From a virus (lineage: Duplodnaviria > Heunggongvirae > Uroviricota > Caudoviricetes), in IMG/VR virus record IMGVR_UViG_2529293139_000011: a stretch of 40,519 nucleotides of DNA; one strand, 5' to 3'. The notes under the pieces are model-generated. The model searched no databases and was not told where the DNA came from. It worked only from the letters and a program-made list of their open reading frames with translations. This document shows positions 31,994-35,861 of this stretch, in pieces (positions within the stretch are counted from its first letter, which is position 1; every line of letters starts with the position of its first letter). A program made the position numbers and the translations under genes.

Positions 31994-32710
31994 ATGGAAA
32001 ATAAAAAATCACTGACGACAGAACAGCTCGAAGACGCTAAGCGGCTTAAGGCTTTGTATGAGTCAAAAAAGAAAGAATTGGGAATAACCCAATACTCAAT
32101 CGCTGATGAACTGGGTATCACCCAAGGAGCGGTAGGGCATTATCTTAATGGCAGAAACGCGCTAAACGTTGAGGTTGCATCTGGTTTTGCACGATTGTTG
32201 CAAGTCTCAATTGCTGATTTTAGCCAGTCAATTGCTGCCAAGGTTGCAGAACAGGCAGAAAGCCTTAAGAGCGATGCCAACGTAAGGTATGCAGGGGAAT
32301 ACAGAGCAGGAAAGAGGTATCCGGTGTTAAGCAGTATCCAGGCTGGCTCGTGGTGTGAAGCATGCGAACCATACACCATTAAAGACATAGATGTTTGGCT
32401 TGAGTCTGACGCGCATATTCAAGGTAATGCGTTCTGGCTTAAAGTGGAAGGTGATTCAATGACGGCACCGGTTGGGTTAAGCATTCCAGAGGGAACATTC
32501 GTTCTTTTCGATACCGGAAGGGAGGCGATCAACGGCAGCTTGGTCATAGCAAAACTTTCTGACTCTAACGAAGCAACATTCAAGAAGCTGATAATCGACG
32601 GCGGAAATAAATACCTCAAGGGACTTAACCCTGCATGGCCTCTCGTGCCAATCAATGGAAACTGCAAGATTATAGGCGTTGCAATTGAGACAAAACTAAG
32701 GCTGGTTTGA
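31994..32710 (+). CDS. cI: CI-type prophage repressor (HTH plus S24 LexA-like autopeptidase domain)
   Basis: 238-aa ORF with an N-terminal HTH (ITQYSIADELGITQGAVGHYLNG) and C-terminal S24 motifs (GDSMTAP ... KKLI); divergent from cro. Confidence 0.85.
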   Translation: MENKKSLTTEQLEDAKRLKALYESKKKELGITQYSIADELGITQGAVGHYLNGRNALNVEVASGFARLLQVSIADFSQSIAAKVAEQAESLKSDANVRYAGEYRAGKRYPVLSSIQAGSWCEACEPYTIKDIDVWLESDAHIQGNAFWLKVEGDSMTAPVGLSIPEGTFVLFDTGREAINGSLVIAKLSDSNEATFKKLIIDGGNKYLKGLNPAWPLVPINGNCKIIGVAIETKLRLV

Positions 32711-32727
32711 TCACGCAAGGGGCGCTT

Positions 32728-33096
32728 ATGGTTGGAACCGCTATAGCAAGCTTTTTTGGGATGTTGGCAATCTCGACAATTTACGGCTTAGCGCATGCTT
32801 TTATTGCGAAATCTCTATCAGAAAAAATAAGCCAGGCTTGGGCGCATAGATCAGCTCGTTTCATGATTCTGGTGATCATGGCAATACAAGGGATATCTGC
32901 ATTTATCCTCTATGGATCAAGCTTATACCTATTGTATCAAGGCGCGACATTTACGCCTTACACCAGTGATTACGGAACTCTATACGATGGTAGTGAAGAC
33001 ATCTCTATGGCTTGGATCGTCTTTGGCTTATCTATGGCCGTGTCTGTTGTAGCAGACATCATTAAGGTAATTCTCGTCTTAACCTTCGCTGACTAA
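32728..33096 (+). CDS. Small polytopic membrane protein co-transcribed downstream of cI (rexB position); candidate exclusion / abortive-infection protein
   Basis: ORF 32707-33096 with a TTG first codon; start placed at ATG 32728 with AAGGGG upstream; ~4 predicted TM helices; no recognisable similarity to lambda RexB. Confidence 0.5.
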   Translation: MVGTAIASFFGMLAISTIYGLAHAFIAKSLSEKISQAWAHRSARFMILVIMAIQGISAFILYGSSLYLLYQGATFTPYTSDYGTLYDGSEDISMAWIVFGLSMAVSVVADIIKVILVLTFAD

Positions 33097-33227: not shown

Positions 33228-33268
33228 AAATACCTTGGGTATTTACACAATAAAATACCTACAGTATT
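33228..33268. promoter_or_regulatory. OL / pL region with two palindromic operators: aataccttgggtatt (33228-33242) and aatacctacagtatt (33254-33268)
   Basis: Same AATAC-N5-GTATT consensus and spacing as at OR; candidate pL TTTACA-17-TATTCT overlaps the operators; upstream of nutL and N. Confidence 0.65.
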
Positions 33269-33315
33269 CTTTAGCCATCAGCAGGACGCTGGTAGCCAAA
33301 CGGAACAGATTGGCA

Positions 33316-33464: not shown

Positions 33465-33770
33465 ATGACAGTAGTCATTACATATCTGGCTGACGATAAC
33501 GCCAGAAATCGCCGCAGAGCACGCAGACAGGCTCAACGTGAACAGGCAATGCAAGAACAGCGACTGGCGCGAAAGATTGCGCTAAAGCTCTCTGGTTGCG
33601 TCAGAGCAGATAAAGCAGCATCACTCGGAAGCCTTCGCTGCAAGAAGGCAGAAGAAATCGAGCGTAAACAGAATCGTATTTACTACAGCAAGCCACGCAG
33701 TGAAATGGGTGTGACTTGCTCAGGCCGCCAGAAGCGACGCGGAAAATCAATTCCAGCTTATTACGATTGA
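33465..33770 (+). CDS. N: N-type antitermination protein
   Basis: 101-aa ORF with an N-terminal arginine-rich motif (NARNRRRARRQAQREQ) and a C-terminus (ERKQNRIYYSKPRSEMGVTCSGRQKRRGKSIP) resembling lambda N; preceded by GGAGG. Confidence 0.8.
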   Translation: MTVVITYLADDNARNRRRARRQAQREQAMQEQRLARKIALKLSGCVRADKAASLGSLRCKKAEEIERKQNRIYYSKPRSEMGVTCSGRQKRRGKSIPAYYD

Positions 33771-33778
33771 GGTGAGCC

Positions 33779-33943
33779 ATGCTCAAGAAAGTCAAACGCC
33801 GACTTTACAAAGAAGGTAGATATTCATGCCAATTGCCAAAATGCGACACAACAAAATGGAGTGTCGATGATTGGTGTAACTGGATAGATAGATACGGAAC
33901 TTGGTGGGAACGTATTTATTTTCGCGGCAAACCACTTATTTGA
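33779..33943 (+). CDS. Small Cys/Trp-rich hypothetical protein downstream of N
   Basis: 54-aa ORF MLKKVKRRLYKEGRYSCQLPKCDTTKWSVDDWCNWIDRYGTWWERIYFRGKPLI, translated by hand (below the ORF-track size cut-off). Confidence 0.3.
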   Translation: MLKKVKRRLYKEGRYSCQLPKCDTTKWSVDDWCNWIDRYGTWWERIYFRGKPLI

Positions 33944-33951
33944 GGTGAGAT

Positions 33952-34038
33952 ATGGAAGAAGAATTTGAAGAGTTCGAAGAGCATCCGCAGGATGTGATGG
34001 AACAATACCAGGACTATCCGTATGACTACGACTATTGA
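33952..34038 (+). CDS. Very small, highly acidic hypothetical peptide
   Basis: 28-aa ORF MEEEFEEFEEHPQDVMEQYQDYPYDYDY with GAGGTGAG upstream. Confidence 0.25.
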   Translation: MEEEFEEFEEHPQDVMEQYQDYPYDYDY

Positions 34039-34222
34039 TAAGAATCAATGGTGTGGACAATTCAAACGATGCAATGGATGCAAGTTGCAATCGGAATGCA
34101 TGGTTAAGCCTGAAGAAATGTTTCCTGTAATGGAAGATGGGAAATATGTCGATAAATGGGCAATACGAACGACGGCAATGATTGCCAGAGAACTTGGTAA
34201 ACTGAACAACAAGGCTGCCTGA
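34022..34222 (+). CDS. Small Cys-rich hypothetical protein
   Basis: 66-aa ORF with CGQFKRCNGCKLQSEC; early-left operon. Confidence 0.4.
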   Translation: MTTTIDKNQWCGQFKRCNGCKLQSECMVKPEEMFPVMEDGKYVDKWAIRTTAMIARELGKLNNKAA

Positions 34223-34261
34223 TGGTGGCCTTTATTTTTGGCATAAACAACAGAGGCTAAC

Positions 34262-34558
34262 ATGGAATTTAAAGGTACTGAAGGTAAGTGGGAAATAATG
34301 ATGGATGGCGATGAGATTAAAATCATCCAGGCAGACTCTCTTGAAAATGGCGCAGGCTGGCGTTCGTATATTGCAATCTGTGAGGAAGTTCAATGCATTG
34401 AAGATGCCAATCTAATAGCGGCAGCACCTGACCTTCTCGAAGCACTTCAGTTATTACTTAAGCAATCCAAAAATAGAACAACGACAACATATCCAGAATG
34501 GTATGGAGCTGTTAATAAAGGTTTTGCAGCAATCATCAAGGCTCTGGGAGGTGAGTAA
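34262..34558 (+). CDS. Hypothetical protein
   Basis: 98-aa ORF in the early-left operon. Confidence 0.45.
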   Translation: MEFKGTEGKWEIMMDGDEIKIIQADSLENGAGWRSYIAICEEVQCIEDANLIAAAPDLLEALQLLLKQSKNRTTTTYPEWYGAVNKGFAAIIKALGGE

Positions 34559-34758
34559 TGTGCGAGTTTTACGAAGCAGATATCAAACGCCCAGAAATGG
34601 CAAGTGATGCGACATTACGTGATTACTTCGCGGCAAAGGCTATGCAAGCAATGATTAGCAATCCATCGATTATCGATAATGATTCTGATGGAGCTGTTAA
34701 TTATGCAGCAAGCGCTGCATATAAGTTTGCAGACGCAATGCTCAAAGCTCGCGAATAA
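34558..34758 (+). CDS. Hypothetical protein
   Basis: 66-aa ORF preceded by GGTGAG; its start overlaps the previous stop. Confidence 0.4.
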   Translation: MCEFYEADIKRPEMASDATLRDYFAAKAMQAMISNPSIIDNDSDGAVNYAASAAYKFADAMLKARE

Positions 34759-34763
34759 GCACT

Positions 34764-34791
34764 GTGTATTCATTCCAACGAGTGAATACAC
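34764..34791. repeat. Perfect 9-bp inverted repeat GTGTATTCA-N10-TGAATACAC
   Basis: Read directly from the sequence; no T-run follows, so it is a candidate protein-binding site or RNA stem-loop. Confidence 0.5.
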
Positions 34792-34852
34792 GGAGCAATG
34801 TCGCTCGTAACTAAACAGGAGCCGACTTGTTCTGGTTATTTGAAATCTTCTT

Positions 34853-34880
34853 TGCCCTCCAGTGTGAGGGCAATTTTTTT
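34853..34880 (+). terminator. Intrinsic terminator in the early-left operon (TGCCCTC-cagtgt-GAGGGCA followed by ATTTTTTT)
   Basis: 7-bp GC stem plus T-run about 12 nt upstream of the next gene's RBS. Confidence 0.6.
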
Positions 34881-34892
34881 GACGGAGGATAT

Positions 34893-35861
34893 ATGAGTGA
34901 AGTAACAGATTTAGTTGTTATTGAAAAAGCAAATGCAATGACTGTATTTCAGTCTGCCGACCAGATTGAAGAAATCCTTCAAAAGGTTGAACGTGAAGTT
35001 ATGTCCTTTGTGCCTGATATCACAACGGCAAAGGGCAGAAAGGAGATCGCTTCTCTGGCGTATAAAGTTGCGCAGACGAAAACATATCTCGATGGTCTTG
35101 GCAAAGACCTTGTTGCTGAACTGAAGGAAATTCCAAAGCTAATTGATGCTAACCGCAAGACAGTGCGTGATCGCCTTGATGAGCTGAAAGCCAAGGCGCG
35201 CCAGCCTCTTACTGATTATGAGGAAGAACAGGCGCGGATTAAAGCCGAAGAAGAAGCTAAGGCAGCAGCTGAAGCTCTCGCAAAGCAAATTGAGTCTGAC
35301 CATGAAATAGCTATTTTGATGGATCGCGAATTTGACCGCCAAAGAGAAGAGGCAAGACTCAAAGCGGAGCAGGAAAAGCGAGAGCATGAAGAACGATTAA
35401 AAAGAGAAGCTGAAGAGAAAGCCAGAGCAGAAGCCGAAGCAAAGGCAAAAGCCGAAATTGAAGCAGCAGCAAGGCGAGAAGCAGAAGCTAAGGCCGCAGC
35501 GGAACGTGCAGAGCGTGAACGCATTGAAGCCGAGCAACGAGCACAGCGCGAAGCAAAAGAGGCAGCAGAACGAGCTGAAAGAGAAAAGCAGGCAGCAATT
35601 GAAGCAGAACGCAGAAAAGCACAGGAGGAGGCTGAACGAATCCGGCGCGAGGCTGAAGCAAAAGAGCAAGCCAGAATAGCAGAAGAAAAAAGAATCAAGG
35701 AAGAAGAAGAGCGTAGAGCAAAGGATAAAGCTCACCGGAAAGAAGTAAATAACAAAATACTTGCTGACCTTATCAAGGTTGGCGCATCAGAAGATGTTGC
35801 TAAAAATATCATAACAGCCATCGTAAAAGGCGAAGTATTCGCAACAAAAATAACCTACTAA
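34893..35861 (+). CDS. Coiled-coil protein with a long low-complexity Ala/Glu/Lys/Arg repeat region; function unknown
   Basis: ORF 34827-35861; start placed at ATG 34893 after GGAGG; central ~180 aa are EAEAKAKAE / RREAEAK-type repeats. Confidence 0.6.
   Translation: MSEVTDLVVIEKANAMTVFQSADQIEEILQKVEREVMSFVPDITTAKGRKEIASLAYKVAQTKTYLDGLGKDLVAELKEIPKLIDANRKTVRDRLDELKAKARQPLTDYEEEQARIKAEEEAKAAAEALAKQIESDHEIAILMDREFDRQREEARLKAEQEKREHEERLKREAEEKARAEAEAKAKAEIEAAARREAEAKAAAERAERERIEAEQRAQREAKEAAERAEREKQAAIEAERRKAQEEAERIRREAEAKEQARIAEEKRIKEEEERRAKDKAHRKEVNNKILADLIKVGASEDVAKNIITAIVKGEVFATKITY

Follow-up and report, generated by a model that had tools for sequence, protein, structure and literature searches.

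The orf28-ral pair and its accessory neighbours downstream of N in an Sf6/HK620-like prophage

Layout of the cluster and its flanks

The analysed stretch of DNA, hereafter called the window, is 40,519 nucleotides long and, judging from its sequence, is an Sf6/HK620-like Lederbergvirus, i.e. a prophage of the P22 type, with 97.7% identity to Sf6 across 60% of the 24.9 kb queried. Near its left end lies a tRNA-Arg gene (anticodon CCT; 1009-1083, + strand), and its presence there suggests that the window is a host-flanked prophage, integrated at an arginine tRNA gene, and not the genome of a packaged phage. The cluster under study is bounded upstream by the antiterminator gene N and downstream by an intrinsic terminator, and the features of the region are listed below.

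31994-32710, + strand: cI-like repressor gene
32707-33096, + strand: 129-aa hydrophobic membrane ORF (phrog_6534, E 6e-79), overlapping the stop of the cI-like gene
33242-33270, + strand: promoter-like site, TTTACA/17-nt spacer/TATTCT
33465-33770, + strand: antiterminator N (phrog_271 'anti-termination protein N-like', E 4e-36), upstream boundary
33779-33943, + strand: ORF A, 54 aa; SD GAGGTGA at 33769-33775
33952-34038, + strand: orf28, 28 aa; SD GAGGTGAG at 33942-33949
34022-34222, + strand: ral, 66 aa; SD AGGA at 34010-34013
34211-34242, + strand: terminator-like hairpin (34211-34232) and T-run, a 9-bp stem followed by TATTTTTGGC, overlapping the 3' end of ral
34262-34558, + strand: ORF D, 98 aa; SD AGAGG at 34252-34256
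34558-34758, + strand: ORF E, 66 aa; SD GGGAGGTGA at 34546-34554
34760-34880, + strand: 'boundary sequence' and then a tL2a-like intrinsic terminator (stem 34852-34873, followed by TTTTTTT), downstream end of the cluster
34893-35861, + strand: 322-aa Glu/Ala/Arg/Lys-rich ORF (phrog_1376; homologue of Sf6 gene 33), adjoining the tL2a-like terminator

The + strand thus carries the cI-like gene and N as well as the five ORFs and the gene after the terminator, and homologues of N are annotated as N at the matching place in phages N7 and HF4s. The genes are tightly packed: the stop codon of N falls within the SD of ORF A, the stop of ORF A within the SD of orf28, and the stop of ORF D and the start of ORF E share the sequence TAATG. 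Each of the five ORFs has a match among known protein families and is for that reason more than a chance ORF, while ORFs on the opposite strand of the cluster gave no family match; searches of PADLOC and NCBIfam with the five ORFs returned no match either. The sequence of the hairpin at the 3' end of ral is kept in lambda, Sf101 and N7. As for the downstream end, the matching stretch of Sf6 is annotated 'bsq4; boundary sequence' and 'terminator, homology to phage lambda; tL2A'; a literature search on 'boundary sequences' found nothing.

A preliminary description of this DNA had reported five short ORFs with ribosome-binding sites directly after N, and their coordinates, their + strand and a normally spaced SD for each of them proved correct, as did the placing of the segment in the accessory part of the pL operon downstream of N. 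The ORFs are also conserved in related phages, the lack of such conservation having been named there as what would speak against them. Its statement that none of the five was recognisable is wrong for two of them, the Cys-rich 66-aa ORF being Ral, which that description itself had named as a lambda gene of this position, and the acidic peptide lambda orf28 (see below); concerning ORFs A, D and E, it stands as to function only, their families being already catalogued.

Three observations concern the flanks. The 129-aa membrane ORF occupies the place of lambda rexA/rexB and is a candidate for a lysogen-expressed exclusion or conversion gene. The promoter-like site lies about 200 nt upstream of N, at the expected place of pL. 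Finally, the HF4s homologue of the 322-aa ORF is annotated 'similar to phage phi80 Agt; Gam antitoxin protein', and one RefSeq genome lists 'cell envelope biogenesis protein TolA' under the match, perhaps for a homologue of the same ORF.

Identity, coding evidence and linkage of orf28 and ral

The 66-aa ORF matches the Pfam family PF11058 (Ral) over its full length (residues 1-66 on model positions 1-66), with 162.1 bits against a cut-off of 25 and an E-value of 2.2e-48, as well as phrog_1055 'restriction alleviation ral' (E 3e-49). Its product differs from lambda Ral by a single substitution, Q61L (98.5% identity), which identifies 34022-34222 as ral, the sole gene of known function in the cluster. 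The four cysteines of the pattern W-C-x5-C-x2-C-x5-C, namely C11, C17, C20 and C26, are invariant in alignment A2 and retained in intact homologues of about 50% identity; with 11 basic and 8 acidic residues, the protein is mildly basic. A sequence search of the PDB with Ral found no related solved structure.

With Ral, type IA restriction-modification systems such as EcoKI methylate unmodified DNA faster, so that incoming phage DNA is spared cutting, and Ral is a weaker anti-restriction factor than Ocr. Lambda Ral relieves type IA restriction while promoting modification: it stimulates methylation by the enzyme and does not inhibit it (PMC12707154). Given their near identity, the same restriction alleviation and modification enhancement may be expected of the Ral protein of the window.

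The 28-aa peptide encoded upstream of ral has the sequence MEEEFEEFEEHPQDVMEQYQDYPYDYDY, exactly as in the preliminary description, where it had been singled out for its acidic and aromatic composition (12 acidic, 7 aromatic and 0 basic among 28 residues). All 28 of its 28 residues are identical to those of lambda orf28 (lambdap47, NP_040623), it matches phrog_16060 (E 7e-19), and it overlaps ral by 17 nt, as in lambda, with its stop codon 14 nt past the ral ATG; on these grounds, 33952-34038 is assigned to lambda orf28. The gene usually goes unannotated because it is shorter than the length limits of gene callers, and nothing functional was found in the literature on orf28/lambdap47.

One might hold that so small an ORF is no gene, its apparent conservation hitch-hiking with the 5' region of ral in near-identical phage DNA. 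Indeed, orf28 is identical in 197 of 265 copies, as the DNA concerned is 95-99% identical among E. coli phages, and it is unannotated in RefSeq and in the P22 record. Since most copies sit in such DNA, divergent Ral loci were sought, and the variation of orf28 was followed over 50 distinct nucleotide versions, in which codons 1-18 lie outside the SD and start of ral. Variable sites at codon positions 1, 2 and 3 numbered 11, 11 and 23 overall and 6, 7 and 15 in codons 1-18; relative to the window sequence, pN in these 18 codons ranged from 0.04 to 0.22 and pS from 0.24 to 0.91. Length variants of 22, 23, 25, 26 and 30 aa were found, every one in frame, and even the divergent versions, in spite of such synonymous change, retain the acidic core as well as the frame, start and SD. 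They are represented by the following peptides.

Providencia: MEEDIEEFDEHPDDDMRQYQDYPYEYDY
Kluyvera (GTG start): VEDEFDEHPDDDMSRYQDYPYDH
Pantoea: MDEEEFDEHPADDMSQYQDYPYEFDY
Leclercia: MEEEFEEHPQDDMSQYQDYPYEYDY
Erwinia: MEEFDQHPDDDMSQYQDYRYEY

The motif EEF-x-E-HP-x-D-x-M is retained in at least seven genera, namely Escherichia/Shigella, Salmonella, Providencia, Kluyvera, Pantoea, Leclercia and Erwinia. In the C-terminal half (YQDYPY), conservation is confounded, because the SD and the start codon of ral are embedded in it. A conserved RNA structure was considered as another source of the conservation and rejected, as an alignment of 25 sequences gave a consensus energy of -3.4 kcal/mol and no compensatory pairs. 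Overall, we regard orf28 as a real peptide-coding gene under purifying selection, and hitch-hiking of a non-coding stretch is very improbable.

The association of orf28 with ral is close. Of 265 loci, 262 have an orf28-like ORF before ral, the remaining three beginning at a contig edge, and in nearly all loci the stop of orf28 lies at the same distance from the ral ATG. A DNA pattern scan for the core of orf28, made independently of ral, recovered 95 copies ahead of ral, 8 ahead of ral pseudogenes (disrupted by a nonsense codon or by an internal deletion that recurs) and 2 at contig edges; among these ca. 105 matches, none lay away from ral or a ral remnant. The association persists where Ral has only 53-65% identity to the Providencia Ral used as alignment reference, i.e. 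in Pantoea, Leclercia and Erwinia. Where orf28 is shortened, by a stop at codon 20 or by deletion of codons 1-15 with the SD kept, the translated ORF still ends near the ral ATG; in one haplotype (L191), a stop occurs at codon 4. Amino-acid changes in Orf28 were seen in 6 of 9 haplotypes with a broken ral vs. 27 of 132 with an intact one, an excess which is suggestive only, since the lineages are not independent.

Three Ral homologues that lie elsewhere than in a lambdoid pL operon (phage GZMU_E2010 and contigs L401 and L402) lack orf28, so that Ral may not need Orf28 in principle. In GZMU_E2010, ral follows an intergenic stretch with promoter-like hexamers, as read by eye.

Several further observations were made on the Ral loci. 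A recurrent ral pseudogene, with orf28 intact, is present at loci L285, L288, L289, L293, L348, L387 and L389; an internal deletion of about 100 nt fuses 'WCGQ' to the 'WAIRTT' region and looks mediated by a short repeat (TGGTGTGG.CAAT / TGGGCAAT). Two 89-aa frameshift fusions (P0297 and P0300) join the first ca. 20 residues of Orf28 to full-length Ral, one of them in a cluster of 76 members, and may be either sequencing errors or real variants. Near-identical lambda ral/orf28 DNA was also met in GTDB contigs L008-L023, L025, L028, L029 and L031, which belong to genome assemblies from unrelated bacteria (Pseudoxanthomonas, Nocardioides, Paenibacillus, Bradyrhizobium and Kitasatospora, among others) and most of which are either short and of low coverage or about 48.5 kb long. 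These copies look like lambda DNA contamination and, as they made up most of the matches, the GTDB scan for Ral brought little diversity.

ORFs A, D and E and the probable exchange of cassettes

ORF A matches PF17583 (DUF5484) with 46.5 bits against a cut-off of 27, and phrog_1871 (E 1.7e-22). It is equivalent to Sf6 gene 36, annotated 'similar to phage T4 gene Orf55.4', and a tblastn search retrieved 1040 phage records, of which about 1029 fall under 60% identity and are mostly T4-like; one match that was inspected sits between a glutaredoxin gene and a late sigma factor gene. All the conserved residues of DUF5484 (K6, Y15, P20, W27, W32, I36, D37, G40 and W42) are present in ORF A. Compared with phage N7, the window has lost 19 nt together with the usual stop of this ORF (alignment A1), so that its last ca. 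9-10 residues are a non-homologous read-through that terminates within the orf28 SD. The two Cys-rich proteins of the preliminary description are ORF A, with three cysteines, and Ral, with four, and the counts stand; none of C17, C22 and C33 of ORF A, however, is a conserved column among 41 members of the family. As its cysteines vary in this way, the richness of ORF A in cysteine was not taken as meaningful, and the idea of a zinc-binding or Cys-rich mini-protein was dropped. By its family match, ORF A is best described as a small Trp-rich DUF5484 protein with relatives mainly in T4-like phages.

ORF D corresponds to phrog_1273; its N-terminal beta part is variable, and the helical hairpin behind it, with the motif EDAxLIAAAPDLLEALQ, is conserved. 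A direct Pfam search gave no match, and its homologues of 90-97% identity all carry PF27050 (Phage_P22_Y8K6), a family to which ORF D very likely belongs. ORF E corresponds to phrog_2201 and phrog_37111, shares the motif TLRDYFAAKAM ... ADAMLKARE and has 1488 homologues, which are without any Pfam family. Its AF2 model (pLDDT 76) has helices at residues 20-34 and 44-65, from which ORF E, a widespread phage protein, is predicted to be a two-helix hairpin; a Foldseek search of this model against BFVD returned uncharacterised phage proteins only.

The exact combination of the five genes is rare: coverage of 80% or more of the 1.5-kb query was reached by no phage record and by a single E. coli genome. 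Of ca. 280 distinct Ral neighbourhoods, taken from collections of viruses, metagenomes and genomes, 54 have a member of the D family downstream of ral and 24 a member of the E family; the two are found together in 13, with E abutting D in 10 of these, while the ORF A family lies upstream of ral in 30 of 297 neighbourhoods. ORFs A, D and E are thus facultative, being present in 9-19% of the Ral neighbourhoods. Concerning the junctions, the sequence TTGAGGTGAG is common to those preceding ORF A and orf28, and in other phages N is fused straight to orf28 via the same sequence; the cassettes have probably been exchanged by recombination at such repeated, SD-containing junctions.

Could ORFs A, D and E be new anti-defence or host-takeover proteins? 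They are located between N and the cIII/kil/recombination genes, they act as facultative cassettes, the family of ORF A is found mostly in virulent T4-like phages among small ORFs of unknown function, and ORFs D and E are repeatedly met directly next to each other. Location by itself is weak evidence for such roles, however, and the three ORFs have no match in the defence-related PADLOC library; no solved relative of ORF D or ORF E came out of sequence searches of the PDB, the literature on DUF5484 was empty, and the predicted models are of moderate confidence (pLDDT 72 and 76), their fold matches being generic or uncharacterised and so uninformative on this point. We therefore regard a role of this kind as doubtful, though the three ORFs are reasonable low-priority candidates for an anti-defence screen.

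Possible role of Orf28 and comparison with known systems

As a whole, the cluster is a standard mosaic accessory region of the lambdoid pL operon, mostly already catalogued. We consider it likely that it represents a variable pL accessory segment of an Sf6/HK620-like prophage, made of an orf28-ral core, in which Orf28 may be a translationally coupled partner peptide, and of three interchangeable cassettes. The cluster would be transcribed from pL under N antitermination, with transcription ending at the tL2a-like terminator. Its constant core would be the lambda anti-restriction module orf28 + ral, in which ribosomes finishing orf28 would feed the ral start and the acidic Orf28 would act together with the mildly basic Ral and not alone. 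ORFs A, D and E would be early accessory proteins, a role suggested by their position only.

The coupling could also be the whole function of orf28, the ORF serving as a leader whose translation brings ribosomes to ral or unmasks its start, with a peptide devoid of function. The nearly constant 14-nt spacing between the ral ATG and the orf28 stop fits such a leader, and so do the two truncations mentioned above, both of which leave a short ORF ending at ral, and the non-lambdoid ral genes of L401 and L402, which have an abutting upstream ORF of unrelated sequence. Moreover, in the single window sequence the start of orf28, AUAUGGA (33947-33953), is predicted to pair with UCCGUAU (34014-34020) in the ral start region (z = -2.67), a pairing which closes the whole orf28 coding region. 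Across the alignment, however, this long-range pairing is unsupported: the Pro codon has G, A, T or C as its third base, and compensatory changes amount to zero. A mere leader does not account for the constraint on codons 1-18, well upstream of the ral start region, where pN is far below pS and third-position variation dominates, nor for a peptide motif kept across at least seven genera. A leader without a functional peptide is, in our view, unlikely.

Conversely, Orf28 could be a stand-alone anti-defence or host-inhibiting peptide, for instance a mimic of DNA or of the SSB tail, merely carried beside ral. The purifying selection on the peptide and its place in an early operon known for host-takeover genes would agree with this, the argument for DNA mimicry being one of composition only. 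Among the ca. 105 pattern matches, however, orf28 was not seen apart from ral or its remnants although the region is highly mosaic, and its changes are more frequent where ral is broken, with the reservation on non-independent lineages made above. A folded mimic of the Ocr or ArdA type also seems improbable for 28 residues with two prolines, and no similarity to known anti-defence families was found in Pfam or PADLOC. An independent function of Orf28 is accordingly quite unlikely.

Within the preferred reading of a core in which orf28 and ral may work together, the strongest form would make Orf28 a required peptide partner of Ral in a two-component restriction-alleviation system, which we put forward tentatively, as a possibility rather than an expectation. 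If true, it would shed light on the way in which Ral turns type IA enzymes to de novo methylation, and it would account for the poor performance of ral cloned without full-length orf28. Given that Ral is weaker than Ocr anyway, the plasmid result is not specific evidence on this point. In recombineering, the construct in question, which started at codon 16 of orf28 (primer 4576), had 'little to no effect' on restriction by EcoKI (PMC9410887). In a CRISPRi study of lambda, orf28 was non-essential, the host being one that lacks a functional type I system (PMC10695390). As a by-product of the present analysis, lambda's own orf28 looks like a selected gene tied to ral, and cloning or assaying ral alone may omit part of the system.

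Among known systems, RalR (Lar), encoded by the lambdoid Rac prophage, also serves restriction alleviation and is a functional analogue of Ral. It shows no homology to Ral (E 0.045 for the best local alignment), has no orf28-like ORF upstream and is annotated as an endodeoxyribonuclease toxin; homology to the small genes of Rac (RalR, YdaE, KilR, YdaF, YdaG and RcbA) was looked for and none was found. T4 Stp, Ocr and ArdA are small or acidic phage products which counter type I restriction enzymes. Ocr and ArdA imitate DNA by means of arrays of acidic residues, according to the work cited in PMC9410887. Orf28 has no sequence similarity to Stp, Ocr or ArdA, from which it also differs by its 28 residues with two prolines and by being unseen without Ral.

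The closest counterparts are those of lambda and Sf6. In lambda, the orf28-ral pair (lambdap47/lambdap46) is 100% identical to that of the window for Orf28 and 98.5% for Ral, and the 17-nt overlap, the SD context and the terminator-like hairpin after ral are common to both; on the other hand, lambda has the oppositely oriented sieB between N and the module, where the window carries the DUF5484 ORF, and ea10 downstream, where the window has the D/E pair. Sf6 (genes 37-36-35-34, bsq4 and tL2A) has the same order as the window, i.e. N, gene 36 (DUF5484), an unannotated orf28 and gene 35 (ral), and in both cases ral is followed by one cassette slot, the boundary sequence, the tL2a terminator and the gene 33 homologue. 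The two differ in the length of the DUF5484 ORF, which is greater in the window through the 19-nt deletion, and in the content of the slot, which holds a single 140-aa gene 34 in Sf6 and the pair of ORFs D and E in the window.
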